Shown here: positions 6,802 to 60,312 of the stretch, piece after piece
Layout of the letters: every line of letters begins with the position of its first letter
How positions within the stretch are numbered: the stretch's first letter is position 1
Source: Candidatus Binataceae bacterium
Lineage (GTDB): Bacteria > Desulfobacterota > Binatia > Binatales > Binataceae
Length of the DNA stretch: 64,000 nucleotides
Direction of reading: 5' to 3'
NCBI GenBank assembly: GCA_035294265.1
Contig: DATGLK010000095.1
Span: forward strand, 64,326 to 128,325
The notes under the pieces: generated by a model
Database searches by the model: none
The model's input: the letters and a program-made list of their open reading frames with translations, nothing else
What the model was told of the DNA's origin: nothing
Translations under genes and position numbers: made by a program

Positions 6802-6997
6802 GCAGGCTAGTGTCCTTCAAAGCGGCGAGCTACCGATAGGGGCAATCCAGGGCGACGCCTTCGGTGCTTCGGAGATGAGCCGGTGGGCGAGGGGCAGTGG
6901 GTTGTTCTACCGGCGCGCTTTGTTTAAAACAGATTAGCCCCGCAAACCGCGTGGGCAATCCTTTGGGTGCGACAAAGCGCACGAGGACGGTTGTGGG

Positions 6998-7828
6998 ATG
7001 AAAATCGTCAGCCTGAGCGCGGCAGTTTTCGCGCTGCTGGTCTGCCTAGCCCCTTATGCGGCGCAAGCCGACAACAGCAGCGTGAGCGACCAAATTGCTG
7101 CCGATGGCCGGTTCGTCGTCAACAAGGCGGTCAACGACAGTTACGATTTCTTCACCGCGCCGGTGTTGTTGGGGCAGGCGCTGCGCACTCCGGTCTTTTA
7201 TTACACGCTGCTAGGCGCGGGCGCCGCGTTGGGGACCGGCTTTGCCCTAGACAACACGGTGTATGGCCATTTTCGTGGGATGTCTTCCGGCGTTGGCACC
7301 GTTTTGGAGGACGTCCCTACTTTCGGCATGCTCGGGGTGACGGCGGCAACCTACGGCTGGGGGCTTTACACTGACAACCAGCGCACCCGCCAATTCATGA
7401 TTACGACCAGCGAAGGGGCGGCGGTGGGCGCGGCCTTCACCTTTGCCTTCAAATACGGCTTCGCGCGCGCCCGTCCTTATCGCGGCAATGGGCGCTGGGC
7501 ATTTTGGGACAACGGCGAGTCCTTTGTCTCTGGCCATGCCACTCCGGCTTTCGCCCTGGCCTGCGGCTTGAGCGAATACGCCGACAATAACTGGATGGTG
7601 GCGATTCCCGCCTACGGCGCCGCCACTGCGGTGGGGGTGGGCCGGATCGGCACCGGCGCCCACTGGCTGTCCGACGTCGTGGGTTCGGCGCTGCTGGGGA
7701 TCGGCTCGACCGAGATGGTGCTGTATTTCCATAAACAGCAACAGGAGCATCCCGCCTCCTGGCAGATCTTCTCCGCCAGCGGCCCCTCGGGTCAGGGCGG
7801 CGGGGCAGGCGTCTCGTACGACTGGTAG
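6998..7828 (+). CDS. PAP2 superfamily phosphatase, secreted
   Basis: Signal peptide MKIVSLSAAVFALLVCLAPYAAQA; PAP2 motifs KxxxxxxRP (FARARPYRG), SGH (SGHAT), and R..H..D (GRIGTGAHWLSD). Confidence 0.6.
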   Translation: MKIVSLSAAVFALLVCLAPYAAQADNSSVSDQIAADGRFVVNKAVNDSYDFFTAPVLLGQALRTPVFYYTLLGAGAALGTGFALDNTVYGHFRGMSSGVGTVLEDVPTFGMLGVTAATYGWGLYTDNQRTRQFMITTSEGAAVGAAFTFAFKYGFARARPYRGNGRWAFWDNGESFVSGHATPAFALACGLSEYADNNWMVAIPAYGAATAVGVGRIGTGAHWLSDVVGSALLGIGSTEMVLYFHKQQQEHPASWQIFSASGPSGQGGGAGVSYDW

Positions 7829-8792: not shown

Positions 8793-9830
8793 ATGATCTT
8801 TCGCGAACTCAATTGGGGTAAGTGCAAAACCTATCTGGCGATCTCGGAAGCAAGCCGCAAGGCCGCCGTCATCGATCCTTTGCATGACAAGATCGAGCGC
8901 TATCTCGCGGTCCTCGCCTATCACAGATGGTGCTTGGAGGCGATCGTCGACACCCACACTCACGCCGATCATCGCAGCGGCGCGTTGGTGTTGGGCGAAC
9001 TGGCCGGTGCGCCGGTCGTGATGCATCGTCTGGCGCCCGCTCCGCACGTCAGTATCCATGTCGAAGACGGTCAGGCGCTGAAAGTGGGCAACGAGGAACT
9101 CCGTGTCCTCCATACCCCGGGCCACACCCCGGATTCGATAAGCCTGCTTGCGAAGGACCGCGTCTTCACCGGCGATGTTCTGTTCATCCATGGGACCGGA
9201 CGCTCCGATTTCGCGGGCGGCGAGGCAGGCATTCAGTACGATTCAATAATGCGCAAGCTGTTCACGCTTCCCGACGAGACGCTGGTTTACCCTGCGCACG
9301 ACTATCGCGGACACACCCATTCAACCATCGGCGAGGAGAAGCGCTCCAATCCGCGCCTGGCGGGCAGATCCCGCGAGGAATACATCGACCTGATGAACAA
9401 CCTCGGCTTGCCGTTGCCCGAGGGCATCCAGGAGGCGCTGCAACCCAACCAATCCGACATCGACGCGGGCGCGCTCAAGTTTCCCACGCTGGCGCAACTC
9501 AACCAGGTGCGCCAGCTGAGCGCCGCCGAGTTGCACGTGCGGCTCGCCAGTGCCACTCCGCCGATATTAATCGATATTCGCGAAGAAGATGAGTATCGCG
9601 GAGAGCTGGGTCATATCGCGGGTGCCCATCTAATCCCGCTGAAGCAACTGCCCGAGCGGGTCGATGAGTTTGGGTATGCCAAGGGCCGCGACATCGTCGC
9701 GATCTGCCGCGTTGGGGTCCGAAGCGCCACCGCCGCTGCGATCCTCACCGGATTGGGCTTCGAGCACGTCTGGAATCTGAAAGGCGGCATGATCGAATGG
9801 GCCGATGCGCGGCTTCCGGTCGAGCGATGA
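8793..9830 (+). CDS. Persulfide dioxygenase (ETHE1-like MBL fold) fused to C-terminal rhodanese domain
   Basis: N-terminal metallo-beta-lactamase motif THTHADH...HTPGHTPDS...AHDY typical of sulfur/persulfide dioxygenases; C-terminal rhodanese with active-site CRVGVRS. Confidence 0.75.
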   Translation: MIFRELNWGKCKTYLAISEASRKAAVIDPLHDKIERYLAVLAYHRWCLEAIVDTHTHADHRSGALVLGELAGAPVVMHRLAPAPHVSIHVEDGQALKVGNEELRVLHTPGHTPDSISLLAKDRVFTGDVLFIHGTGRSDFAGGEAGIQYDSIMRKLFTLPDETLVYPAHDYRGHTHSTIGEEKRSNPRLAGRSREEYIDLMNNLGLPLPEGIQEALQPNQSDIDAGALKFPTLAQLNQVRQLSAAELHVRLASATPPILIDIREEDEYRGELGHIAGAHLIPLKQLPERVDEFGYAKGRDIVAICRVGVRSATAAAILTGLGFEHVWNLKGGMIEWADARLPVER

Positions 9831-10013: not shown

Positions 10014-11345
10014 ATGAAAAAGTCCCGCATGGTGGTCGGGGTCGCTGGCACTATCGGCGTCCTGTTGCTGGGCCTGAGTGTGGTCGTCGATAATGCGGCG
10101 ACCCGTGGGTGGTTGGGGTTGCGACGCGCCTACGCCCAGGAGGCGAGCCATGGCAAGAGTGCACATCCCGCCAACGGCGCACCGCGGGCACATCCCGGTG
10201 GGGGCGGCTTGCTTCACCCGCCGGTTCAGGGCGAGAACCAGGTTTATGAGCTATCGCCCAAATTCATCAAAGCTTTTACCACGATGGCGGGCGGTGCGGT
10301 GGCGCCCTGCGCGGCGCTGATGGACCCCTATCCGGAATTCAACGGGATCGCCCTGGATCCTCGCAACGGGATCGCGGTGCTCAGCGACACCAACTTAAAG
10401 AGCGTGCTGGTTTATGACATCAACGTGAAGGCTACGCCGCACAACCTGACGGTGACCCCGGCGCGAACGTGGGTTAGGGGGCCGGCGACTTTCTTGTCCT
10501 TCGCCGCTGGGATCGCGGTCGATCCGGTGCGCCATGAGTTCTACACCACGGAGAACGATATCGGTGACGATGTGGCGGCCTTTTCGTACACCGCCAATGG
10601 CAATTACAAGTCGCGAGTGCTGGCGGTTCCGCACGGCTCCTACGGGATCGCGCTCAGCCAGCGCTACAAGCAGATGGCAGTGGCGATTCAGCATAACGCT
10701 GAGATCATTTTTTACCGTCTGCAGGCGCATGGCGCCGATCGCCCGGTGCGCTCGATTCGCGGTCCGCACACTGACCTGAACGATCCCCACAGCCTGGTAT
10801 GGGACGAAAAGAACAGCGAGATCTTCGTCTCCAACTATGGCAATTCCAATCCTGGCTACTGGGACATGGATTACCGCGACGGCGGCCACTATTACCCGCC
10901 GTCGGTGGCGGTCTTTCGCGACGACGCCGAAGGCGACGCGGTTCCGGTACGCGTCATCCAGGGCTCCAAGACCCGCTTCAACTGGCCCACTGGGATCGCG
11001 GTGGACGACGCCCATAACCTGCTGTTCGTGGCCAACGAAGCGGCCAACCAGATTCTGATCTTCCCGCGCAATGCCCGGGGCAACGTGGCCCCGGTCGGGG
11101 TCCTGGCCGGTCCCCATACTTACATTAGCCATCCGATGGGAGTCGCCTATGACGCCCTGCACGACGAGATCTGGGTGGCTAATTTCGGCCACACGGCGGA
11201 GATTTTTCCGCGCACCGCGCGGGGCGACGTGGCGCCCCGGCGACTTATCCGCAACGCACCCGCGGACGCAATCGCGGCCGGCTTTGGCAATCCGCAGGCG
11301 ATTGCCTACGACTCCAAGCGCGACGAACTGCTGGTACCCAATTGA
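10014..11345 (+). CDS. Beta-propeller repeat protein (NHL/lactonase-like ~45-aa repeats), N-terminal signal/anchor; terminated by in-frame TGA
   Basis: MKKSRMVVGVAGTIGVLLLGL signal; repeated units of form R..GD.AP.R.I.GP.T.L..P.G.A.D....E..VAN....I..F; reading frame continues into next ORF after a single TGA. Confidence 0.55.
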   Translation: MKKSRMVVGVAGTIGVLLLGLSVVVDNAATRGWLGLRRAYAQEASHGKSAHPANGAPRAHPGGGGLLHPPVQGENQVYELSPKFIKAFTTMAGGAVAPCAALMDPYPEFNGIALDPRNGIAVLSDTNLKSVLVYDINVKATPHNLTVTPARTWVRGPATFLSFAAGIAVDPVRHEFYTTENDIGDDVAAFSYTANGNYKSRVLAVPHGSYGIALSQRYKQMAVAIQHNAEIIFYRLQAHGADRPVRSIRGPHTDLNDPHSLVWDEKNSEIFVSNYGNSNPGYWDMDYRDGGHYYPPSVAVFRDDAEGDAVPVRVIQGSKTRFNWPTGIAVDDAHNLLFVANEAANQILIFPRNARGNVAPVGVLAGPHTYISHPMGVAYDALHDEIWVANFGHTAEIFPRTARGDVAPRRLIRNAPADAIAAGFGNPQAIAYDSKRDELLVPN

Positions 11346-26393: not shown

Positions 26394-27818
26394 TTATTCG
26401 GCGCAACAGCTAAGTTTAGTTATGTCTTTGGTAAACGATAATGCGACGATCTTCAGCGCCTCGGACATGGTTGGATAGATGTGCAGCATGCCAACGAAGT
26501 CCTCGACCTTCGCCCCAAAGCGGATTCCCATCGCGGCTTCGTGGATTACTTCCGCCGCGTCCATGCCCAGCATCGAGACGCCCAGAACCTTGCCGCTGTC
26601 GCGCTCGGCGACCATCTTGATAACGCCGCGCGGATTGCGCACCGCCTGCGCACGTGGCACTTGCTCCATATCGACGGTACGGCAGGCGCATCGATAACCT
26701 CGCTCGACCGCTTCCTTGTCGGTCAGTCCGACCACGGCTACCTCGGGGTCGGTGAAGATGGCGCGCGGGATCACCCGATGGTCAACCTTGCGATGCGCCC
26801 CACCGAGCGCGTTAAGCGCCGCGATACCACCATCCTGGGCTCCTACCGGCGTCGCCATCTGGCTCTCCGTGTTAGAGCCGACTACATCCCCGGCGGCCCA
26901 AACGTGCGCAGCCGTCGTCTCCAACTCGTCGTTGACAATGATCGCAGCGCGCTGGTCGGTGCCCACTCCCGCCACGTCTAAGCCCAGCCCTTCAGTATTA
27001 GGAACTCGGCCCGTGGCAACAAGCAAGTGCGACGAGTGCAGGGCGCTTGAAGCATTTCCAGCTATCTCAACCAAGACACCTTCGCGATCTCTACGGACCG
27101 CCACCGCCTTGGTCCCGGTCAGGAGCGTGATTCCTTCCTCGCGCAGAACCTCGCCGAGCGTAACACCGACTTCAGGTTCATGGTTGGGCAGGATTCGCTC
27201 GCTTGGTTCGAGGATGGTCACTCGCGTGCCAAGCCGGTGAAAGAATTGCCCCAATTCGAGCGCGATATAGCCGCCACCCACAATCGTGAGCGACTCCGGC
27301 TGCTCCTTGAGTTCCATGGTTTCGTGGCTAGTCAGCAGATCGCTGGTCATGAACGGAACCTCGTCGAGGCCCTCTAGCGGTGGAATGAAAGGCCGTGATC
27401 CCGTCGCCACCAGAAAGCGTTCCGCTTCCAAGCGAACATCGCCCACCTGAACGGCGTTGCGATCGATAAACCGCGCCATTCCTTCGTATACGCTTATGCG
27501 ATCGCCGACGATGCTCTGGTATTTCTTCTCGCGATAGTAGGCGATCACCTCGTCTTTCTGGCCAACCAATTCCGCAAAGTTGACCTTAAGCCGCGCCGAC
27601 TTAATTCCCGGATAGCGCGGATGTTGCGCTTCATAAATGATGCTCGCCGCCGCGATCAGGTTTTTCGACGGGAGGCATCCGCGATTGACACAAGTACCGC
27701 CGAGGGTGCGGTTTTCCGTCATCGCAGCGGTCTTGCCGAGTTCCGCGGCACGGATGGCCGCGGCAAAAGCAGTTGCCCCCGAACCTAAAATGACCAAATC
27801 GAAGCGTCGCCTTTCCAT
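26394..27818 (-). CDS. merA: Mercuric reductase core (MerA without N-terminal NmerA domain)
   Basis: 474 aa; redox-active [19 protein letters not shown](P) Rossmann motifs; C-terminal vicinal cysteine dyad KLSCCAE diagnostic for MerA within this flavoenzyme family. Confidence 0.7.
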
Positions 27819-27885: not shown

Positions 27886-28245
27886 CTATGCTGCCCACTC
27901 CCGCCTCGTTTGAAGGGCCAAGTCGACCAAGGGTGCCGCTATGAGCAGGGCAATCCCCGGATAGGCGAGGGGATGCGAAAAGAACATTCCCGCCACCAGC
28001 AATATCGCGCCAGCCACGCCAATCCATAGCGCATAGGGACGGTGATGGCGCTGGAACGAACGCCACAAGCCCCACACGGTGAATGCCAGGAAAATGATCA
28101 GGAGCGGAAGTAGGATCGAGTCGCGGATTATAAAGCCCGCGCCGATTGCACTGACCAGCTCTATCAGCCAAGAGAAGCCGAGACAGCAAGCTGAAGCAAA
28201 GATCGCTCCAAGCGGTCCCCATTTTTCAGCATGAAACGATTTCAA
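27886..28245 (-). CDS. merT: MerT-like mercuric ion transporter (paralog 1)
   Basis: 119 aa, 3 TM; first TM carries vicinal Cys motif [11 protein letters not shown] matching MerT LASACCLGPLVL. Confidence 0.55.
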
Positions 28246-28301: not shown

Positions 28302-28676
28302 TCAGGGCGTGCCGGGCGCGTGGTGGCGCGTGTGTTCAATGTTGAGCTGAGTGTAAAACGACGCCGCTATCAGCAACGCCATCCCTGCGTAGGCTGCGCG
28401 TTGGTCAAAGACCAGACCGACCACCAGCAGTACGGCGCCGGTTAGGCTTATCCAGAGGTGCGTCTTCGAGTGGCTCTCGCAGGAATAACGCCACGAACCT
28501 ACGAGTGCGAAGCTCAGGCACACAGCCAGGAATGGAGCGAGAAAAACGTAGTGAACAAGAAACCCCACTCCAACGGTAGTGAGGATGCCTGTGAGCCACG
28601 ATGCGCCAAGACAACATGCCGCTGCCACGACCGCTCCGAGCGGACCCCATTTTGCCAGCGTCACCGGCGGTATCAC
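28302..28676 (-). CDS. merT: MerT-like mercuric ion transporter (paralog 2)
   Basis: 124 aa, 3 TM; AAACCLGASWL vicinal Cys motif in TM1. Confidence 0.55.
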   Translation of the reverse strand: MIPPVTLAKWGPLGAVVAAACCLGASWLTGILTTVGVGFLVHYVFLAPFLAVCLSFALVGSWRYSCESHSKTHLWISLTGAVLLVVGLVFDQRAAYAGMALLIAASFYTQLNIEHTRHHAPGTP

Positions 28677-28892
28677 GGGTCAACTCCAGTCCCTTCAAGC
28701 CACCACTGGTAATAACAAGTGCGGCAGTGAGCTGGCGGCTCGCAAACTCCGTCACGAAGCAGGCAGCCAAGTCCGCCTTCAAGGTCTCGCCCGCCGCACA
28801 ACGCACAACGCTCGCGGCGTATCCGCCGTTCAGCAGCTGCAAGTGCGTTGCCGTTTTCGAGCTGAGTGGCCATGGTCAGCGGCTCGCTGGAA

Positions 28893-29138
28893 TCAGACCT
28901 TCAGGTTGTGAGGTTGTTTCGGTGCCGCTTCGTTATCGACTCGATCGCGGCGACGATACAGCCACACGCCCAGAACAGCGGCGCCTAAGGCCAGTATGCT
29001 GAGAATGCCGCCAGTTCCCAAAGACGACCCCGCGTAACCTGCAAGCGAACAAATTGCGTCGCCGCAGGGATCGGCCAACGCAGTTGACGCAAGCAACACC
29101 GAAAATGACGCCGACATGACCGAAATTGCGTATCTCAT
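28893..29138 (-). CDS. Small secreted/membrane-anchored protein with CxxxxC pair
   Basis: 81 aa; signal peptide MRYAISVMSASFSVLLASTALA, DPCGDAIC, C-terminal TM ILSILALGAAVLGVWLY followed by RRRDR. Confidence 0.35.
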   Translation of the reverse strand: MRYAISVMSASFSVLLASTALADPCGDAICSLAGYAGSSLGTGGILSILALGAAVLGVWLYRRRDRVDNEAAPKQPHNLKV

Positions 29139-29185: not shown

Positions 29186-30082
29186 TTACGCCTCGCGACT
29201 AACGCCGACTTGAAGTAAGTGACGATAGAGCACGGCTCCGGCCAGTGAACCGACCGAGCCGCCAGCAAGCGAGCCAACAACCGAGCCGAAAATCCAGCTC
29301 AGGCTTATGCCCACCGAGAACGCCCCACACTGGAGTACAATCGCCGGCAGAGTTAGGAGGACAAATACCCCGGCAGCCATCAGGCCCAGCACGACGGGGT
29401 GCCTCGGCGCCTTGATACCAACGATCGCGGTGGCAATCAGAAGCGGAGCCAGCGAATAAAGGCTCCCGAGCAGAAAGTACAAGGTCTGGCTTTGCACGCC
29501 TGCGAAGAGGTGGCGCACGCCTGGACTCATCTGGCAGTAATCCAACGCCTGGCCGATCGAGCAAGATCTGGTCAATGCCAGCGAAAGCCCCATCGCCAGC
29601 AACCCCGCGATACCGACCCATCGCGCGGCAATGCCATAGCGCGGCACTCCGCCGCCGCGCATCGCCAAAAGCACCGCAGCGGCGTACAAGGCAGCCCACG
29701 CCGCACCCATGCTCAGCAGCACTTGCGGTGAGAAGACCGTCAAATCGCTCTTTTGCCCAAGAACCCAGACTGAGGCAACTGAAAAGACCAGCCCCATTGT
29801 CACGCTCACGAGCGTCGATTTGCCCATCCGGGCGCTCTCGAGGTTCGCCTGTTCTCGCTCCAGCTCGTCCAGAACCCGCGTACGGGTTGTTTCCAAAAGC
29901 CTCGCGGGGACCTCCTCTTCGGAAAGCCCGCCCAGCGCGCGCCAGGTAAGCTTCATCTCTTGCCACGCCTGGCGGCAATTAGCGCATCCGCGCAGATGGA
30001 CCTGAAGTTTCGCCGGCATCTGAAGATTGCCATCGGCCAACGCGTTGGCCAGTTCGGTTTGAGTCTGTTCGCAGCTATTCAT
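29186..30082 (-). CDS. Anti-sigma factor, zf-HC2 type N-terminus with six-TM C-terminal domain
   Basis: N-terminal HLRGCANCRQ (H-x3-C-x2-C zinc finger typical of ECF anti-sigma factors); six hydrophobic segments downstream; 8-bp overlap with sigma factor gene. Confidence 0.6.
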   Translation of the reverse strand: MNSCEQTQTELANALADGNLQMPAKLQVHLRGCANCRQAWQEMKLTWRALGGLSEEEVPARLLETTRTRVLDELEREQANLESARMGKSTLVSVTMGLVFSVASVWVLGQKSDLTVFSPQVLLSMGAAWAALYAAAVLLAMRGGGVPRYGIAARWVGIAGLLAMGLSLALTRSCSIGQALDYCQMSPGVRHLFAGVQSQTLYFLLGSLYSLAPLLIATAIVGIKAPRHPVVLGLMAAGVFVLLTLPAIVLQCGAFSVGISLSWIFGSVVGSLAGGSVGSLAGAVLYRHLLQVGVSREA

Positions 30083-30656
30083 TGCCAGATTGACCCGCAG
30101 CTTTGTCTGGAGCGCAAAGGGCGGCGCGGAGTTGCGCCAGCGCGCGGAAAAGCCGCACCTTCACCGCTCCTTCGGAAATGCCAAGCGCCAAGGCAATTTC
30201 ACGCCCGTTGAGCCCTTGATATCGGCTGAGCAGCAGCACCTCCCGCAGGCCCTGCGGCAGTCGCAAAATTGCCGCTTGTAGCACCCTGCTGGTTTCGGTG
30301 GCCTCGGTCAGAGCCATCGGATCGGTATCCACGATCCGATGGTCTGCCGGAATCACGTCGATTGCTTCCTGGTCCATGGTCGTTTGCCGCCGGTGTTCAA
30401 CCCGGCTCTTTTCGTCTCTCAGCAGGTTGGCCGCGATAGTGAACAGAAAGGCCTTGAAAGTTCCCGCAACATAGTTCTTTCGCGCCTGGTGCAGGCGCAG
30501 GAACGTGGCTTGAAAGAGATCCTCCGCCATCGCGCGATCCCCGCTTGCACGGAGCAGAAAGTTGAACAGCCTGGTGCCATATCTCTTGAAGAGCTCGTCG
30601 AAAGCGCGGCCATCTCCGCCGGCGTATGCGAGCATCAAGTCCTCATCGTTCCGCAC
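30075..30656 (-). CDS. RNA polymerase ECF-type sigma-70 factor
   Basis: 193 aa; sigma-70 region 2 (FDELFKRYGTRLFNFLLR...DLFQATFLRL) and region 4 HTH (REIALALGISEGAVKVRLFRA). Confidence 0.8.
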   Translation of the reverse strand: MRNDEDLMLAYAGGDGRAFDELFKRYGTRLFNFLLRASGDRAMAEDLFQATFLRLHQARKNYVAGTFKAFLFTIAANLLRDEKSRVEHRRQTTMDQEAIDVIPADHRIVDTDPMALTEATETSRVLQAAILRLPQGLREVLLLSRYQGLNGREIALALGISEGAVKVRLFRALAQLRAALCAPDKAAGQSGNE

Positions 30657-30679
30657 GCTCCCTCCGCTCCTGCACCCCT

Positions 30680-30707
30680 TATAACGGGCCTGCCCGGCGA
30701 AAGTTAC
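30680..30707 (-). promoter_or_regulatory. Candidate ECF-type promoter (GGTAAC-N16-CGTTAT on minus strand) upstream of sigma/anti-sigma operon
   Basis: Reverse complement of 30676-30712 reads tgcGGTAACtttcgccgggcaggccCGTTATaag, ~20 nt upstream of sigma start codon. Confidence 0.35.
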
Positions 30708-30876
30708 CGCAGTTCAAAAACTGCACTTGTTTCGCTTAAAGATCCGTAGTCAGCCTCGGAACATTACGTTAACGGCAAATCGCAGCAAGACAAATCTAAG
30801 CTTAGATAACATTAGCAAAGCACAGACTGGGGAGTGCCTTCGTCGCCATGCTTTGGAGAGGCAGAGCTGTGCCTGC

Positions 30877-31140
30877 TCAGCTACGTCCATGGGCTCCGGT
30901 ACGCGTGGTCTTGGCATTAATCCACCGGTCAACCGCGGGGCGATAAAACCGCCAGTCGGAGCCCAACCTGAACGCCGGTAGCTCACGATGCTTGATCAGG
31001 CGATAGACCGTGCTGATATGGCAGCGCAAATAATCCGCCAGCATTTTCACGGTGAGGATTTCGTTCTTATCGCTTGGATAGACGGGGCGTGTGCGCAAGG
31101 CAGGCCGGGGCACCTTTTCATACTCATGATTACGACACAT
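30877..31140 (-). CDS. Helix-turn-helix DNA-binding protein (excisionase/HTH_17-type, MerR-superfamily-like HTH)
   Basis: 87 aa; LTVKMLADYLRCHISTVYRLIKHRELPAFRLGSDWRFYRPAVDRWI matches excisionase-type HTH; no metal-binding Cys cluster. Confidence 0.5.
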   Translation of the reverse strand: MCRNHEYEKVPRPALRTRPVYPSDKNEILTVKMLADYLRCHISTVYRLIKHRELPAFRLGSDWRFYRPAVDRWINAKTTRTGAHGRS

Positions 31141-31171
31141 AAGTCTTCTTGCTGCTTGCCTAAAATCAAAA

Positions 31172-31222
31172 CGGAATAGTCGCTTGAAAGTTACAGGCCA
31201 TGGCCTATAGTCGCTGCTCTGC
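31172..31222. promoter_or_regulatory. Repeat cluster in divergent intergenic region: direct repeats ATAGTCGCT x2 flanking perfect palindrome GGCCATGGCC
   Basis: Sequence ggaATAGTCGCTtgaaagttacaGGCCATGGCCtATAGTCGCTgct read directly; also GGTGA-N5-TCACC inverted repeat at 31231-31245. Confidence 0.3.
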
Positions 31223-31459
31223 GCTGCCCGGTGATTTGGTCACCTGAGTTCAAGCCGGCTGGCTGGGTCAGTAAAGCAGCCGATTAGACCCAAGCTCAAA
31301 ATGAAGTTGCCCCGTTTGGTCGCACGCGACCGCTTTGCCCGCGCCAAAGACCTTATTGCAGTGCGCCTTCAGACGATCGCCACAGCGCCCGCGTTTGCGC
31401 GCACGAATCCTCTTCCAGAGCGAATGTTGTGACCTGGCGGCCTCCTCTCTATCCGGTAT

Positions 31460-31486
31460 GTAACCTTCAGGCCTCATCCCCGTTCT
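31460..31486 (+). promoter_or_regulatory. Candidate ECF-type promoter (GTAACC-N15-CGTTCT) upstream of merTP-merA operon
   Basis: ggtatGTAACCttcaggcctcatcccCGTTCTtagc, 38 nt upstream of merTP start; same GTAAC-N16-CGTT spacing as the motif upstream of the ECF sigma gene. Confidence 0.35.
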
Positions 31487-31523: not shown

Positions 31524-32141
31524 ATGCCTTTAAAACCTGAAAGGCTTGGGTGGCTGTCGGTAATTCTGGCTTCGACCTGCTGTCTCTTCCCGCTGCTCGC
31601 AATCGGGCTCGGACTGGGAAGCATCGGGCTCGGGTCGTTTTTCGGACGGTTCGAGCCGTGGCTCGATCTGGGGGGTGTCCTAGTGGTCATCGCCGCCTGG
31701 TTGTATTTTATGCACGAGCGACGACGCGTATATGCATTGGGTTCGACCATAAAGGGCGAGCGGCGTACGCTCGTCGCGCTTTCGGTCGCCACCGTTCTGG
31801 TTGTGCTTTTTGCAGGTTCGGCATTGGTGAGTCATCTGTTGCCTCCCAGTTCGCCGATGCAGACCACATTTGCGCAGAGCGCAACCATCCGCGCCAGCGG
31901 CGCTTCCACCACCGCTAGAGTCAACTACCCGCGCGCGGTTCTCGCGGTCACAGGAATGGAGTGTTACGCATGCGTGCCAGAGATCGAGCACAGCTTGAAT
32001 AAGGTGCCCGGCGTCCATTTCGCTCAGGTGGATTTTCACCATCAGACGGTTACCGTCGAATATGACCCTGCCAAGGCGACCGCCGCTCAGTTGGTGAGCG
32101 CGGTAAAGTCCGTGGGATACGACGCCAAGGTTGCGGACTGA
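31524..32141 (+). CDS. merT: MerT-like transporter fused to C-terminal MerP-like heavy-metal-associated (HMA) domain
   Basis: 205 aa; TM1 with ILASTCCLFPLL (MerT vicinal Cys), two further TM, then HMA domain LAVTGMECYACVPEIEHSLNKVPGV (GMxCxxC). Confidence 0.6.
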   Translation: MPLKPERLGWLSVILASTCCLFPLLAIGLGLGSIGLGSFFGRFEPWLDLGGVLVVIAAWLYFMHERRRVYALGSTIKGERRTLVALSVATVLVVLFAGSALVSHLLPPSSPMQTTFAQSATIRASGASTTARVNYPRAVLAVTGMECYACVPEIEHSLNKVPGVHFAQVDFHHQTVTVEYDPAKATAAQLVSAVKSVGYDAKVAD

Positions 32142-32162: not shown

Positions 32163-33584
32163 ATGTTGTTGGAAAGGAAAGCCAAGGGTGACTTCGACTT
32201 GTTCGTCCTCGGCGGTGGCTCGGCGGCGTTCGCCGCGGCGATTCGCGCGGCCGAGCTTGGTGCGCGCGTCGGCGTCGCCGAAGAGGGTGTTATCGGCGGT
32301 ACTTGCGTAAATCGCGGATGCGTGCCGAGCAAGAACCTGCTCTATGCCGCCGAGCGGTATTACGACTACTACAGGAATGGATTCGCCGGTTTGCCCCAGG
32401 GCAAGGAAGCGGCGAATTTCGCTCAAGTCATTGCTCAGAAGGATGACCTCGTCGAGGGGCTGCGCAAGGCCAAATATTGGGACGTCCTGGAGGCCTTTCC
32501 GCAGATCAAGTTTGTGTCCCGCCCGGCGGCGTTCGTTTCTGCCAATGAAGTAAGTGTCGGCGACCGGAAGGTCACCGCCGATCATTTTGTCATCGCGACT
32601 GGGGCGTCCGTGACGCGGCTGCCAATACCTGGACTGGAAAAGACACCCATTCTTACGTACAAGGAAGCTCTCGACCTCAAGCAGCTCCCGAAATCGCTCC
32701 TGGTGATCGGCGGGGGGCCGATCGGCCTTGAGCTTGGCCAGATGTATTCGCGCTTCGGGAGCAAGGTAACGATTCTCGAAGCTCTGCCGTATATCGCGCC
32801 ACTGGAGGACGGGGAGATCTCCGAGGCACTAAAGGCCTATCTGACAGAAGAAGGGCTTCAGGTTCTCACTTCGGTCAAGGTGACGCGGGTTGAACCGGTC
32901 GAGGGCGGTGTGCGAATCGAAGCCCTGATCGGTAGCAAGTCGGTGGATTTCTATGGCGAGCGACTGCTGCTTGCCGCCGGCCTTAAACCCAACACCCGCG
33001 ACCTCGGGCTAGACAAAGCCGGCGTCCGGCATGACGAGCGCGGAGCTGTAGTCGTTGACGACCAACTCAGGACCAGTGCGAAAAACATCTGGGCAGCGGG
33101 CGACGTCACCGGCCAAATGATGCTGGTCACGGTCTCGGCGATGGAGGGCGGGATCGCCGCCGAAAACGCGCTCGCGGGCGCTCGTAAAAGAATCGACCTG
33201 AGCCACGTGCCCCACGCGATCTTCACCTCACCGCAGGTCGCCTCGGTGGGCCTGCGCGAGCGCGACGCGAGATCTTCTGGGCGCAACATTTTGGCCGCCA
33301 AACTACCTTTCGCGCACGTGCCCAAGGCCGCCGCCGTGCGTGACACGCGCGGCCTTTTGAAGTTGGTCGTGGATGGTCGCAACTATCGGATCCTCGGCGC
33401 GCATTTGGTGGCGGCCGAGGCCGCGGATCTGATCCATATCGGCGTGCTGGCAGTTCAGCAGGGACTCACGGTCGGCGACTTGCTGCGCACCACTTTCGTT
33501 TATCCGACCCTGGCCGAGGCATTCAAGATCGCGGCCTTATCGTTCAACAAGGATGTGACCAAGCTAAGTTGCTGCGCGACATAA
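32163..33584 (+). CDS. merA: Mercuric reductase core (MerA paralog 2, no NmerA domain)
   Basis: 473 aa; [13 protein letters not shown] redox centre; C-terminal KLSCCAT vicinal cysteines. Confidence 0.7.
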   Translation: MLLERKAKGDFDLFVLGGGSAAFAAAIRAAELGARVGVAEEGVIGGTCVNRGCVPSKNLLYAAERYYDYYRNGFAGLPQGKEAANFAQVIAQKDDLVEGLRKAKYWDVLEAFPQIKFVSRPAAFVSANEVSVGDRKVTADHFVIATGASVTRLPIPGLEKTPILTYKEALDLKQLPKSLLVIGGGPIGLELGQMYSRFGSKVTILEALPYIAPLEDGEISEALKAYLTEEGLQVLTSVKVTRVEPVEGGVRIEALIGSKSVDFYGERLLLAAGLKPNTRDLGLDKAGVRHDERGAVVVDDQLRTSAKNIWAAGDVTGQMMLVTVSAMEGGIAAENALAGARKRIDLSHVPHAIFTSPQVASVGLRERDARSSGRNILAAKLPFAHVPKAAAVRDTRGLLKLVVDGRNYRILGAHLVAAEAADLIHIGVLAVQQGLTVGDLLRTTFVYPTLAEAFKIAALSFNKDVTKLSCCAT

Positions 33585-33720
33585 ACAACAGATTTAGCCC
33601 ATGATCGGCAATTGATTCGCTCGAAGGCTTGCGTACGCGCAACCGTGCTTTGCCCCCGTTGCCGGGCCCTCCTGTTCGCCTACGAATGCGCCGCGAGTGC
33701 GGCCGAGAGAGGAAGCTTTT

Positions 33721-34062
33721 ATGAGCAAAAGGATTACGATTGGGATATTGGCGCTGAGCGTCATGAGCTTGATCGCGTTGGGCGGACGCGGCGTGGCTCT
33801 GGCCGGCGACAAGACTTGCCCGCTGCAAATCAAGGGGATGCAGTGCGCGATGTGCGCGGGCGCAATCGAGGCCGCGCTGAAAGCCGTACCTGGCGTCAAA
33901 AGCGCAAAGGTCGATTACAGCTCGGCCCGCGCCGATGTCGTCGTGGACGATACGGTCCAGCCTGCCACTCTACTGGGCGCGGTTAAAAAGGCCGGCTTTG
34001 AGGCCGTTCCCCTGCCGGCGATGCCCCAAGCTCAGGCGAAGGATTCTTGCTGCAAGCGGTAG
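33721..34062 (+). CDS. merP: MerP-like periplasmic heavy-metal-binding protein (HMA domain) with extra C-terminal CC
   Basis: Signal peptide MSKRITIGILALSVMSLIALGGRGVALA; GMQCAMCAG metal-binding motif; C-terminal KDSCCKR. Confidence 0.6.
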   Translation: MSKRITIGILALSVMSLIALGGRGVALAGDKTCPLQIKGMQCAMCAGAIEAALKAVPGVKSAKVDYSSARADVVVDDTVQPATLLGAVKKAGFEAVPLPAMPQAQAKDSCCKR

Positions 34063-34071
34063 GAGACGAAC

Positions 34072-34866
34072 TTGCGCACCGTCGATTCACTGCTAGAAAG
34101 CGAGGAAGCTCGCGTTCTCCAGATTCTTTACGATGACTGGATGGACCTTCTGCGCTGCACGACCATCGACCAAGCGATGGAGCGGGTGAGAGTGCCATTT
34201 TCTCATAAAAGGCGGCTGCGCATAGCCGATCTCTTGCGGCAGGATAAACGAGCCGCGGCGCTGATGCGGTGGGATCTGTCGGCATATGTACTCACCAATG
34301 ATGAGAAGCTCTTCGCGCGCCTTATCCTGCGAGCCGCACCGTCTCTTGCGTTGATTCCCGATCCCGAGAGTCTTGGCACGGCCGCAATGGACTGGTCCCG
34401 TGGGGGTATTCCGCAAGCACTTGAGGCCCTTGAATGGGTTGGATTCTTGGAGCATGACACGGACGGCTACAAACTGGCTCCGGGCCAAGCCCGCGTAGTT
34501 AACGGCATCGGACTTAACTTCCATGAAGTGGTGCTGACCGACCGCGGCGAGCGCTTCAATACCAATTGTGCGACCGACTTCTTCATCATGACGCATCCGC
34601 CGACTCGCCAACGTGTATTGGAGCACCTCAGTTGCAAACACCTGCCGGAAATTACCGATGGGATAAGCAAAAAGATGACAGCGGCGATTCGTGCCGCCTC
34701 CGCCAGGGGACGGAGCCTTGCCCAAGCCAGCGATTATACGCGTGAGCGTGCCATCCTGAACGACGCCTGCGCGTGGACGCATGAACCCATCGGCATCGCC
34801 CTGGATTCCGGAGAATTGACCGAGGTTACGCCGGAGACAACGTGGTATCTGCGCGGCGGTGGCTGA
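34072..34866 (+). CDS. Possible organomercurial lyase MerB-like protein (divergent)
   Basis: 264 aa; segment RFNTNCATDFFIM resembles MerB active-site region (WCALDTLIF, Cys96/Asp99), second Cys in HLSCKHL; similarity weak and not verified. Confidence 0.35.
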   Translation: MRTVDSLLESEEARVLQILYDDWMDLLRCTTIDQAMERVRVPFSHKRRLRIADLLRQDKRAAALMRWDLSAYVLTNDEKLFARLILRAAPSLALIPDPESLGTAAMDWSRGGIPQALEALEWVGFLEHDTDGYKLAPGQARVVNGIGLNFHEVVLTDRGERFNTNCATDFFIMTHPPTRQRVLEHLSCKHLPEITDGISKKMTAAIRAASARGRSLAQASDYTRERAILNDACAWTHEPIGIALDSGELTEVTPETTWYLRGGG

Positions 34867-35041
34867 GGAGTCAACAATCTCTTCCGGTCGGAAGAGGCCG
34901 CAAGCTGCTGGTTCCAACGGCATCCGCAGATTGTCGCGGCCGAGAGCGGGCTGGTCAGAAAACTGTTTGGCGCCCGGATTGGCTCAAACACCCCCTAACG
35001 CTTGTCCAAAACCCATTCCCACAAGCGGAGCGAGGAGAACA

Positions 35042-35317
35042 ATGAAACAGGTACGAACCACAGGAATCATGCTTGCCGCAGCCGTCGGTCTGATGTTTGC
35101 GGCTCAGCCTGTTCTGGCGGCCGGCTCGGGTAGCACGGCGTCGCAAGCCAAGGTCAAGTGTGTAGGCGCCAATAGCTGCAAGGGGCAGAGCTCTTGTAAG
35201 ACCGCGACCAGCGCCGGACCGGGCCAGAACTCTTGCAAGGGGCAAGGCTTTATCCTGACCTCGAATGCCAAGGAGTGTCGGGAAAAGGGCGGCCATCCCG
35301 AGTCGATGAAGATGTAG
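35042..35317 (+). CDS. DUF2282-type Cys-rich signal-peptide protein (bufferin BufA-like RiPP precursor)
   Basis: 91 aa; signal peptide MKQVRTTGIMLAAAVGLMFAAQPVLAAGS; core KVKCVGANSCKGQSSCKTATSAGPGQNSCKGQGFILTSNAKECREKGG with 5 Cys in pattern typical of DUF2282 (KCyGvakaGkNdCa...sCaG...C). Confidence 0.6.
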   Translation: MKQVRTTGIMLAAAVGLMFAAQPVLAAGSGSTASQAKVKCVGANSCKGQSSCKTATSAGPGQNSCKGQGFILTSNAKECREKGGHPESMKM

Positions 35318-35945: not shown

Positions 35946-36833
35946 GTGTTCCGTGAACGATTTTCAGACTTGGGCTATGGCGTCGGCCTGCGCCGCGAAC
36001 ACTATAGCCACGTAACGGAGCATCGACCCGCGGTCGATTGGTTCGAGATCATCACGGAAAACTTCATGGTCGCCGGTGGCCTGCCGCTTACGGTGCTGGA
36101 AAGAGTCCGCAGCGACTATCCGGTCGTGATGCATGGCGTGTCGCTCTCGATTGGCTCGGCGGGTCCGTTAAATCGCAATTACCTCGCCACGTTGCGGACA
36201 ATGACCCACCGGTTCAAGCCGTTCTGGATCTCCGACCATCTATGCTGGACGGAAATCGGCGGGCGCAACCTCCACGATCTCCTGCCGCTGCCGTACACGG
36301 AAGAGGTTGTCCGTCATGTTGCCGGCCGCATCCGCCAGGTTCAGGACTGTTTGGACCAGGAGATCCTTATCGAGAATGTGTCCAGCTATATGACGTTTCG
36401 ATGCTCGACCATGCAGGAATGGGAGTTTCTGAGCGCGGTGGCCGAAGAGGCCAATTGCGGCATCCTGCTCGATATCAACAATGTCTACGTCAACGCCTTT
36501 AACCACGGATTCGACCCGGTCCTTTACATCGATTCGGTACCGCCCAACCGCGTGGTTCAGTTCCATATGGCCGGCCACAGCGACCACGGCACCTATCTGC
36601 TTGACACCCACGATCATCCGATCCGGGAGGAAGTGTGGCGGCTCTACGAATTGGCCGTACGTCGTTTCGGGGCGACTTCGACGTTGATTGAGTGGGACGA
36701 CAACATCCCTGAGTTCGGCGTGCTGGCCGACGCCGCCAAAGAGGCGCGCGATCGCGCGTGGAACGTGATGGCGGCGGAAACGGAAGGTGGCGATGGATCT
36801 GGCTTTGAGCGCGGGGTCTTATCGCGCGCTTGA
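35946..36833 (+). CDS. DUF692 / multinuclear non-heme iron oxygenase (MNIO; MbnB/BufB-like RiPP-modifying enzyme)
   Basis: 295 aa, GTG start; full-length match to DUF692 pattern (VDWFEIITENFM...VMHGVSLSIGS...WISDHLCW...LIENVSSYM...LLDINNVYVNAFNHGFDP...FHMAGHSD...LLDTHDHP...TLIEWDDNIPEF). Confidence 0.8.
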   Translation: MFRERFSDLGYGVGLRREHYSHVTEHRPAVDWFEIITENFMVAGGLPLTVLERVRSDYPVVMHGVSLSIGSAGPLNRNYLATLRTMTHRFKPFWISDHLCWTEIGGRNLHDLLPLPYTEEVVRHVAGRIRQVQDCLDQEILIENVSSYMTFRCSTMQEWEFLSAVAEEANCGILLDINNVYVNAFNHGFDPVLYIDSVPPNRVVQFHMAGHSDHGTYLLDTHDHPIREEVWRLYELAVRRFGATSTLIEWDDNIPEFGVLADAAKEARDRAWNVMAAETEGGDGSGFERGVLSRA

Positions 36834-37378
36834 CAACCTCCTCAGAAGGAGCGAACGGCCAACTTCATAGGGGCTCGTTCGCTCCCGAGAGAAGATCGAG
36901 AAGATTGTTCATGGAGACGCTCGCCTCGGATCGGTCGAGCGGCTGCAGATTTAGTAACCTGCCGACTTCGGCGGGCTTTTGGGACGCCTTACGGGAGGAT
37001 TACCACGTCACCTTGGCGGTGATCGGCGAGAAACGGTTGCGCACGCTGGTCGCTGCGCAACTGACCGCACATCCATCAGACAGTCCATTCGCTCTGTGGA
37101 GTCGCTAGTTTCCGCCTGGATTTCATCGCTCGCTATTCGGAGATCACGCGATGGCTTTTTCTGGGCGACCTCGCGCGGCTGGAACGAACGATGCTGGAGG
37201 TTTCCCATTGGATGCGCCACTCGCAATCGAGAATCGTTGTGGCCGGATGATGAAAACTGGAGCTGACAGGCAAGGGCAAACAGACCGCAATCCCGGAAAG
37301 GCGCCGGATGACGATTCTGGTCTGGCGGGATGATAACGAAGTGTATCGCCGGCGTTTGGAATCGAATCGGTCGAACGG
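36830..37378 (+). pseudogene. Decayed DUF2063 (MbnC/BufC-like MNIO partner) gene: frameshift, tandem in-frame stops, internal deletion
   Basis: Frame 2 (36830-37108) gives ...VIGEKRLRTLVAAQLTAHPSDSP (DUF2063 HPP motif); frame 0 (37065-37250) gives LCGVASFRLDFIARYSEITRWLFLGDLARLERTMLEVSH (DFADFL...LEWA-like) ending in TGATGA; frame 0 continues ...RMTILVWRDDNEVYRRRL (C-terminal LLVWR motif) with ~50 aa missing in between. Confidence 0.45.
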
Positions 37379-37589
37379 ATAGCGCCCGGGCCTAGTCCGG
37401 GAAGAGGCAGCCTTTGGAGCTGTCTACGAAGCTGTTGCGCCATTGTTGGGAGCCGGCGCGGTAAGACACATCAGTGCAATGCTCGCGCGTTGGTTGCGCG
37501 ATGGCCTGCTTCGGACCAGGACCAGACAGAAAACACAGTATCCGAGTAACACGATTCAGCCGCGACCTTCCGAGCACGTTTTCGCTGCA

Positions 37590-59480: not shown

Positions 59481-59898
59481 TCCTAAGCTTGATTCGAAAA
59501 TAACTCGCACGCAGGGCGGTGGCGATCGCGGCGTGCCGTTTGTGGTTTTAGGCAACCAGCGTGACGCGCGGGTGAGGGTGCAGCCGCCGCGCGCCCGCCG
59601 TGCAATGGCTTCCCCCCGACCAAGTTGTCTTCAGTGTATTTTCGATGGTCCCATCGCGCTGACGCTTTGATGAAGGCGAGGGTCGAGCGAACGTTCTATA
59701 TACACCCAGGCGCGCAAAGGGCAAGTAAAAGCCCTTCCCGCACTGATGGGGCGTAACCACCTGACCCCGCGAGCGTTCCCACTTCGTGACAGTTCGAGCG
59801 CAGGCGTACGACAGCTTCGGTCGTTGAGCGCCGCGGAAACTCGCTACCTCTGAGCAGGACCGGCCAGTCATGGTCGCCGGCGCAAGGGGGTACGGTCG

Positions 59899-60312
59899 AT
59901 GCGTTTGGTCGCGCTGGGAGTGCTCGCTCTAGTGGTCTCGGGCTGCGCGCTAAACCTGGACCAGCGCCATTTCTTTCCATCCTGGGACAAGCTTGAGACA
60001 GGCGAAGCGCTGGCCTTCGCTGCCCTCAGCATAGGCGACGGAATCACTTCCACCCGCAATACCGCCGCTGGCTGTTCGGAGGGCGACCCGCTGGTAACCG
60101 GGGTGTGGGGTACCAAATATCCTAGCACAACCGATTATGCTTTAGGGCTGGCGTTCAATACCGCGGTCGTGATGGCAGTGGCCGAAGTGCTGCCTCGCAC
60201 GTGGCGCAAACTTTGGCTGATGGGCTTTATCGGAGGTGAGAGCTGGGCGGTGATAAACAACCTGGGGGTCAATTGCTTCCACCCGCCGGCGCCGGAAATC
60301 GGTGCGCAATAA
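59899..60312 (+). CDS. Hypothetical lipoprotein
   Basis: Lipobox LVVSGCA after signal peptide MRLVALGVLA. Confidence 0.4.
   Translation: MRLVALGVLALVVSGCALNLDQRHFFPSWDKLETGEALAFAALSIGDGITSTRNTAAGCSEGDPLVTGVWGTKYPSTTDYALGLAFNTAVVMAVAEVLPRTWRKLWLMGFIGGESWAVINNLGVNCFHPPAPEIGAQ

Follow-up and report, generated by a model that had tools for sequence, protein, structure and literature searches.

A putative ECF sigma factor/anti-sigma factor switch with GTAAC-N16-CGTT promoters at the mercury resistance genes of a Binataceae genome

We examined a 64,000-nt stretch of DNA from a Candidatus Binataceae bacterium (GenBank assembly GCA_035294265.1, contig DATGLK010000095.1, positions 64,326 to 128,325 of the forward strand), referred to below as the window and numbered from its first letter, in which the genes for a sigma factor of the extracytoplasmic function (ECF) type and a predicted membrane anti-sigma factor lie between two sets of mercury resistance (mer) genes. 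The 193-aa sigma factor (30075..30656, minus strand) has a GTG start at 30656, with alternative in-frame starts possible, and its gene overlaps by 8 nt that of the 298-aa anti-sigma factor (29186..30082, minus strand), a protein with a Zn-binding domain and a six-segment membrane domain. The minus-strand genes run in the order HTH_17, sigma, anti-sigma, an 81-aa protein, two MerC-like proteins, and MerA. The divergent plus-strand genes run in the order MerT-HMA fusion (MerTP), a second MerA, an HMA-domain protein, the 264-aa protein p264, BufA2, a 108-aa protein, BufB, BufC, TauE, a 330-aa protein, and CopB. The window's own contig was represented among our loci by two copies, one from a JGI assembly and one from an ENA assembly (L001 and L002).

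The exact motif GTAAC-N16-CGTT occurred four times in the window, both strands counted, against 0.20 copies expected (none of 100 shuffles reached four). Three of the four copies fell within 800 nt, at 30683-30707 (minus strand), 31170-31194 (minus strand), and 31460-31484 (plus strand), and shared the longer consensus GTAAC(C/T)TTC...(C/T)CCGTT. When one mismatch was allowed, the window held 10 copies against 6.5 expected and the enrichment was gone, so only the exact motif core is informative. The predicted sigma-operon promoter, GGTAAC-N16-CGTTAT (30681..30708, minus strand; -35 GTAACTTTC, -10 CCGTTATAAGG), has GGTAAC from 30708 to 30703 and, after 16 nt, CGTTAT from 30686 to 30681, with 26 nt between the end of CGTT and the GTG at 30656. 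The predicted merTP promoter, GTAACC-N15-CGTTCT (31460..31486, plus strand), has GTAACC at 31460-31465 and CGTTCT at 31481-31486, which again spaces GTAAC and CGTT by 16 nt; the merTP ATG at 31524 lies 37 nt past CGTTCT and 39 nt past CGTT. A sequence-only reading of this DNA had already named both sites, placing the first at 30680-30707, off by 1 nt, and giving the second and the equal spacing correctly. It had also listed a weaker GAAC-N17-CGTT at 28807-28833 (minus strand); this string is present, but our weight matrix did not recover it and it was not conserved in two other loci that share the intergenic region.

The third exact site (TGTAACTTTC...CCGTTTTGAT; 31170..31194, minus strand), absent from the sequence-only reading, lies 29 nt 5' of the HTH_17 gene. 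To score these sites we used a weight matrix made solely from orthologous sites outside the window. The sigma site (38.7) and the merTP site (27.6) were the top matches in the window, and the random maximum was 16.2. All three sites also matched the exact motif, and the first two were further matched by orthologous sites in the loci described below. Regular expressions and the weight matrix returned no further sigma-dependent promoters in the window 5' of bufA2, bufB, merC1, or merA_L. The fourth exact match, at 59753-59777 (plus strand), lies 122 nt 5' of a lipoprotein-like 137-aa open reading frame (ORF; 59899-60312). It lacked the extended consensus and was not recovered by the weight matrix, and we take it as probably a chance match; an expectation of 0.2 gives a chance of ~18% of at least one. 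A sigma-70-like string, TTGAAA-16-TATAGT (10/12 matches; 31184-31211, plus strand), is directed toward merTP and overlaps the -35 of the HTH_17 site on the opposite strand, and such strings were no commoner in the region than chance predicts. An Rfam scan of 25-40 kb gave no matches.

Homologues of the anti-sigma factor were rare, with 21 proteins in a collection of 5.8 billion. A set of 185,579 species genomes yielded six loci, each from a metagenome-assembled genome labelled Proteobacteria, Deltaproteobacteria, or Desulfurellales, and a metagenome scan with a 5-sequence alignment as query added 20 further loci. The comparison set comprised 21 non-redundant loci with anti-sigma factors 36-100% and sigma factors 42-100% identical. 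In every locus the anti-sigma homologue followed an ECF sigma gene and mer-type genes adjoined. Exact GTAAC-N16-CGTT stood 22-46 nt 5' of the sigma gene in 21/21 loci, and a second exact site was aimed at merTP or the first mer gene in 19/21, despite differing gene order. The loci other than the window held 44 exact sites in 193 kb (0.58 expected), nearly all at sigma or mer positions, and the -10 was CGTT in all 44.

In alignments of the orthologous sites, the -35 and -10 were invariant and the spacers and flanks varied between loci. The distant clade (~40% identity) had back-to-back divergent sites with another -10 extension, CCGTTTAATA. In three loci (L014, L022, and L038) merTP shares the strand of the anti-sigma gene and lies 3' of it, and there it retained its own site. 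The sites thus look like genuine promoters rather than mere inherited sequence, because invariant elements are set among varying spacers, because the distant clade differs in its extension, and because the relocated merTP kept its site. This footprinting gave strong support to the predicted sigma and merTP promoters and moderate support to the putative site at the HTH_17 gene.

Several loci carried further copies of the motif. In L007 (7103-7635), L017, and L018, and as a remnant in L010, a third copy stood back-to-back with the sigma promoter, 5' of an ORF of ~105 aa with a conserved C-terminus, EYYAWLFCQGGFRNLNMTFEQF. At this position the window holds the HTH_17 gene, in opposite orientation, and a faint remnant of the ORF at 31326-31412 (E 0.66). 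The HTH_17 gene itself (30877..31140, minus strand) encodes an 87-aa DNA-binding protein of the HTH_17/excisionase family (Pfam HTH_17 E 8e-13; TIGR01764), and by tblastn it was confined, among the loci examined, to the two copies of the window's contig (L001/L002). A third exact motif in the distant locus L014 (5463-5495) was found 5' of a patatin-like phospholipase gene with another MerA-like gene downstream. Locus L044, from another Binatia genome, encodes a sigma paralogue 58% identical to that of the window and had neither an adjacent homologue of the anti-sigma factor nor mer genes. It carried three similar GTAAC-N16-CGTT sites (6965-6998, 9443-9476, and 10080-10113), two of them near-identical, before unannotated genes, so that the motif class may serve more than one regulon in the Binatia lineage. 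In a third clade (L043, 6615-11609; L047, 5615-9078; L046, 5591-6540), an ArsR-type (HTH_5) gene overlapped the start of a sigma gene whose product was 43-45% identical to that of the window. The next genes in L043 and L047 encoded a Zn-binding anti-sigma factor of ~222 aa with fewer membrane segments and then a canonical MerB; L043 also had MerC, HMA, and MerE, and its motif was placed between the sigma and anti-sigma genes. This arrangement may represent an ArsR-to-sigma cascade.

Sigma and anti-sigma factors. The sigma factor contained Sigma70_r2 and Sigma70_r4_2 and scored 92.1 bits against TIGR02937 (sigma70-ECF; cut-off 42.9). Its best NCBIfam match, PRK12513, was below cut-off, and its nearest solved structures were SigE, AlgU, and SigL. 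The H-x3-C-x2-C motif and six membrane segments attributed to the anti-sigma factor by the sequence-only reading were both found, with C4 as a fourth ligand: C4, H29, C33, and C36 (H29-x3-C33-x2-C36) were invariant in 14 homologues, 13 of which matched zf-HC2 (best E 9e-9). The family profile aligned to the anti-sigma domain of RsiW (E 1.4e-4) with the ligands in register and matched ChrR and RslA weakly. The N-terminus is, by these sequence matches, a class I Zn-binding anti-sigma (ZAS) domain.

The hydrophobic segments of the anti-sigma factor span residues 91-109, 121-139, 151-174, 203-221, 230-248, and 254-285, and this membrane part matched no Pfam family. C183 and C252 were invariant, and positive charges were clustered in the N-terminus, in loops 2-3 and 4-5, and in the C-terminus. 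This pattern puts C174 and C183, in loop 3-4, and C252, in the turn that joins segments 5 and 6, on the predicted periplasmic side. We considered NrsF/DUF1109 (PF06532) as an identity for this protein and rejected it, with no match of the window protein up to E=5 and one of the 14 homologues matching at E 0.068. An exhaustive profile search at E<=1e-10 widened the family to 143 representatives, in forms of 280-300 aa and of ~220 aa, most of which keep the (Y/F)C and LQC cysteines at identities down to ~25%; the ten members checked in Pfam had zf-HC2 or no match. Directly 3' of the anti-sigma gene in Binatia loci is a conserved gene for a small protein (28893..29138, minus strand; 81 aa in the window). 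This protein has a signal peptide, a basic tail, and a single membrane helix, and its ADPCxDAIC is invariant. Its mature N-terminus would be DPCxDAIC, and we regard it as a candidate co-sensor or Hg(II)-binding accessory protein.

Mercury genes. The two mercuric reductase paralogues both exceeded the curated cut-off of 454.45 bits for TIGR02053 (MerA): merA_L (26394..27818, minus strand) with 520.4 bits and merA_R (32163..33584, plus strand) with 508.4 bits. They are ~42% identical to each other, lack an N-terminal HMA domain, and have a C-terminal Cys-Cys (...SCCAE in merA_L and ...SCCAT in merA_R). merA_L was kept 3' of the anti-sigma gene at 75-88% identity across loci, and because each paralogue is conserved in its own operon, we suggest that the two differ in role. 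MerTP (31524..32141, plus strand) joins a MerT-like membrane domain, with CC in the first helix, to an HMA/MerP domain (HMA E 3.9e-15); its best NCBIfam match was MerTP_fusion (E 1.7e-20), at 73 bits against a cut-off of 180. The sigma gene is followed, on its own strand, by the genes for MerC-like protein 1 (28302..28676), which has a CC pair in its first helix and a Pfam MerC match below cut-off (E 1.5e-5), and MerC-like protein 2 (27886..28245), which scored 46.9 bits against the MerC cut-off of 27.6. A gene previously labelled as a second merT paralogue is one of these two, both of which match MerC and not MerT. Domain matches identified the gene at 33697..34062 (plus strand) as encoding a secreted HMA-domain protein, MerP/CopZ-like, and the HMA proteins scored alike against CopZ and MerP models.

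The protein p264 (34072..34866, plus strand) is probably a distant MerB-like (organomercurial lyase-like) protein, as suggested by alignments, Pfam matches in homologues, and fold matches. Its invariant C166-x2-D169 and C233 are spaced like the catalytic residues of MerB, and an invariant C29 lies in an additional, helical stretch of ~100 aa at its N-terminus. Pfam MerB (PF03243) was matched by 3/114 homologues and by p264 itself at E 0.2, and a sequence-profile search of the PDB gave a best E of 0.29, to MerB2. The structural model of p264 had a predicted local distance difference test score (pLDDT) of 82, and its top nine PDB fold matches were all MerB, with probability up to 0.96 and template-modelling scores of only ~0.2. 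In L031 and L033, p264 was the first gene after the divergent site. Relatives of the locus carried canonical MerT, MerC, and MerB, as in the divergent operon of L029 (DUF3237-MerB-MerC-MerB-MerT-p264), and the sigma relatives at 43-45% identity stood in ArsR-sigma-anti-sigma(~222 aa)-MerB/MerC/HMA/MerE clusters. Because MerA, MerTP, MerC, and MerB-type genes recur across loci, the conserved output appears to be mercury and organomercury resistance. Gene calls reaching 10 kb to each side contained no MerR domain, and tblastn with a hand-entered Tn501 MerR query gave no match in the window better than E 0.27. The earlier suggestion that the sigma/anti-sigma pair regulates mer genes in place of MerR is supported by the absence of MerR from the window and by the motif at 21/21 sigma and 19/21 mer positions, and the pair very probably controls the flanking mer genes.

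Bufferin genes. Both BufA2, a bufferin precursor (35042..35317, plus strand; NF050166, 77.1 bits, cut-off 60), and BufB, an MNIO-family bufferin maturase (35946..36833, plus strand; NF050167, 374 bits, cut-off 310), scored above curated cut-offs. A BufC/DUF2063 homologue (36812..37535, plus strand) was recovered by tblastn with the HvfC-like protein of L007. It has a weak DUF2063 match and is split into two frames near 37088, whereas the L007 orthologue is intact (273 aa); the frameshift marks a pseudogene or else comes from an error in the assembly. The Buf2 cluster thus has BufA2, BufB, and a split BufC, and the CopB gene lies ~0.5 kb beyond it. The cluster was found only in some Binatia loci and was absent from L003, L010, L014, L015, and the distant clade.

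No GTAAC-N16-CGTT site was found 5' of bufA2 in the window. A GGAAC/AAC-N16-CGAA-like string before bufA2 in L007 and L017 was not counted, being absent in the window and in L012. The genes from merTP through the 330-aa gene are all on one strand with no opposite-strand gene between them, and the gaps in this row contained no canonical terminator. Because there is no opposite-strand gene, canonical terminator, or promoter of their own, BufA2, BufB, and BufC are probably co-transcribed with merTP; the sigma factor could control the bufferin genes only through read-through from the merTP promoter, which is plausible. The sequence-only reading had placed both mer and bufferin genes under the sigma pair; the conserved motif bears out the mer part, and the bufferin part fared worse, the cluster being patchy and without a site of its own. 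Within the row, 12 nt past the p264 stop codon, is the palindrome CTCTTCC-GGTC-GGAAGAG (34879..34896, plus strand), which was unique in the window and did not vary among the clade-1 loci, not even in L018 and L027, which lack bufA2. It folds as a 7-bp hairpin with no T-run, matched no Rfam family, and could modulate read-through.

We consider it likely, from these comparisons, that the locus encodes a self-amplifying ECF sigma/anti-sigma switch dedicated to mercury resistance that acts via GTAAC-N16-CGTT promoters. This model is built on direct observations, namely the sequences and their domains and the enrichment and conservation of the motif. At rest, the membrane anti-sigma factor would hold the sigma factor via its cytoplasmic Zn-binding domain, as its family membership suggests. 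The sigma factor would then be freed by a thiophilic signal. Because of the regulon content we consider Hg(II) the likeliest signal, perhaps with organomercurials as well. The freed sigma factor would guide RNA polymerase to GTAAC-N16-CGTT promoters, a step for which the comparative evidence is strong. The output of its own operon would be the sigma factor, the anti-sigma factor, the 81-aa CxxxxC protein, the two MerC-like proteins, and MerA, and that of the divergent operon MerTP, the second MerA, the HMA protein, and the MerB-like protein. In the Binataceae window genome the HTH_17 gene would also be transcribed, and, less certainly, the bufferin genes along with merTP. We infer in this model the specificity of the sigma factor for the promoter, the inducer, the extents of the operons, and the route of sensing.

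Sensing is the least certain step. By analogy with the NrsF cysteines, Hg(II) may be bound at the periplasmic face by C183 and C252, possibly together with the CxxxxC of the 81-aa protein, and we favor a role for the membrane cysteines because they are conserved down to ~25% identity. It is conceivable, if doubtful, that sensing is instead cytoplasmic, with Hg(II) brought in through MerTP and MerC displacing Zn from C4/H29/C33/C36 or bridging these residues and the six-segment domain serving as an anchor or for placement beside the transporters. All four Zn ligands are invariant, the affinity of thiolates for Hg(II) is far above that for Zn(II), and the Hg(II) importers of the regulon would bring the signal inside, a logic like that of MerR. 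The shorter relatives of ~222 aa retain the Zn-binding domain as well, but these shorter variants also keep both membrane cysteines, and a pure anchor leaves unexplained why C183 and C252 are as conserved as the Zn ligands to ~25% identity.

The proposed signal, Hg(II), is a second point at which the same circuit could be read differently. We think it unlikely that the signal is general thiol-reactive stress (Cu(I), Ag, Au, Cd, or oxidants such as hypochlorite) with mer as one output among others. Such a breadth would suit the Zn-binding anti-sigma domains, which are classic redox and electrophile sensors (RsrA, ChrR), and HMA proteins that fit CopZ models about as well as MerP. It would also suit the copper-type bufferin cluster in the window operon, with CopB nearby. 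Cr, Cd, Cu, and hypochlorite are all signals for NrsF-type systems with two periplasmic cysteines. Against this, the regulon core across clades (MerA, MerTP/MerT, MerC, MerB) is mercury-specific, and conservation as partners does not extend to the bufferin and copper genes.

It is very improbable that a different ECF sigma factor of this genome reads the motif instead, or that the motif is an operator for another regulator such as the HTH_17 protein. In favor of such a reading, AAC/CGT-type motifs are common to many ECF groups, similar sites accompany the 58%-identical paralogous sigma factor of L044, and the link between sigma factor and motif comes from sequence comparison. Against it, the motif stands directly 5' of this sigma family in 21/21 loci, a hallmark of ECF autoregulation, and none of the other motif-bearing loci has the HTH_17 gene. 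The element also lacks symmetry, keeps a constant spacing of 16 nt, and has a -35/-10 geometry unlike that of an operator.

Several observations weigh against a mercury-dedicated switch of the extent proposed here. The inducer is guessed from the regulon, and the HMA/CopZ-like proteins, the bufferin, and CopB also fit a copper or soft-metal signal. Two loci (L015 and L032) lacked the second site. The weight-matrix score of the HTH_17 site, 9.9, was inside the random range, and for this reason it is supported by its exact core and its position, together with the GTAACTTTC/CCGTT extension that it shares. The gaps of 112, 175, and 285 nt on the plus strand, together with the hairpin, could interrupt or modulate read-through to the bufferin genes. 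The AlphaFold2 model of the anti-sigma factor, built from 14 sequences, was poor (pLDDT 50; predicted template-modelling score 0.26), and the topology given above was therefore drawn from hydropathy and charge. Many of the loci are kin to each other, so that the counts are not fully independent, and all are metagenome-derived, the evidence being computational throughout.

MerR is the textbook regulator of mer genes, and a lineage in which mer is run by an ECF sigma factor would add a different regulatory solution and would help explain mer regulation in the many environmental lineages without MerR. The anti-sigma factor defines an uncharacterised sensor family that combines a Zn domain with a polytopic membrane domain and two invariant cysteines, and orthogonal Hg biosensors could well be built from so short and invariant a promoter and so small a sigma/anti-sigma pair. 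That BufA2 is linked genetically to mer supports the idea, hinted at in the literature, of bufferins that handle metals besides copper, and new mercury biochemistry in soil Binatia, NC10, and Rokubacteria-type organisms may be sought in p264 and the second MerA. More speculatively, the system might be the first of a third class of mercury sensor beside MerR and ArsR-type regulators, a polytopic membrane anti-sigma factor in which Hg(II) sensing by a periplasmic cysteine pair, possibly with the CxxxxC protein, is passed to the Zn domain. Its regulon would comprise two specialised MerA, MerB-like proteins of a new family, and, in certain genomes, BufA2 recruited as a periplasmic Hg(II) chelator; the 143-member family would then consist of unrecognised thiol-based membrane metal sensors.

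A full-text literature search found no published ECF-controlled mer operon. Mercury is unmentioned in a review of metal-responsive ECF sigma factors (PMC6851896) and in the ECF reclassification paper, and sigma factors are likewise passed over in a review of mer gene diversity. The closest likeness is to the Caulobacter SigF/NrsF system. There, the experimentally mapped SigF promoter is GTAACC-N16-CGAA, SigF controls both bufferin clusters, BufA2 included, and the bufferin is a copper metallophore; the statements of the sequence-only reading on this background agree with the literature. Both systems have an ECF sigma factor co-transcribed with a six-helix anti-sigma factor carrying two periplasmic cysteines (predicted here), SigF/NrsF responds to thiophilic metals, and the promoters share the -35 and the spacing, with a -10 of CGAA there and CGTT here. 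The N-terminus of NrsF has 25 residues, in contrast to the 85-residue Zn-binding domain found here, and its regulon is bufferin/DoxX, whereas mer is the conserved regulon here. The earlier view that SigF/NrsF logic had been extended to mer genes does not hold in that form, as the anti-sigma factor is outside the NrsF family and the likeness is architectural only. In a survey, sigma/NrsF genes were reported in Buf1 clusters and not in Buf2, and the same survey reported MerC-bufferin fusions in mercury-related clusters.

The ZAS factors RsrA, ChrR, RsiW, and RslA have the class I domain found here, with H-x3-C-x2-C and an upstream Cys ligand. These known factors are soluble or single-helix proteins, whereas the anti-sigma factor here has a six-segment membrane domain with conserved cysteines of its own and no Pfam model. 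CnrH/CnrYX and CorE are likewise ECF sigma systems dedicated to metal resistance (PMC6851896), but their sensors differ, being in one case a periplasmic CnrX domain and in the other the sigma factor's own Cys-rich extension. Some relatives of this locus pair an ArsR-type gene with the sigma gene. The MerR-controlled mer operons of Tn21 and Tn501, and those with ArsR-type mer regulators, resemble the locus in having Hg(II) import proteins, MerA, and MerB-type proteins that are induced (here by prediction) as a unit and a regulator divergent from structural genes. The MerR-controlled operons differ from it in that the window has two MerA paralogues, both without an N-terminal HMA domain, and no MerR. 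MerR systems distort a sigma-70 promoter with a 19-bp spacer, whereas here sigma replacement at AAC/CGT promoters would act.

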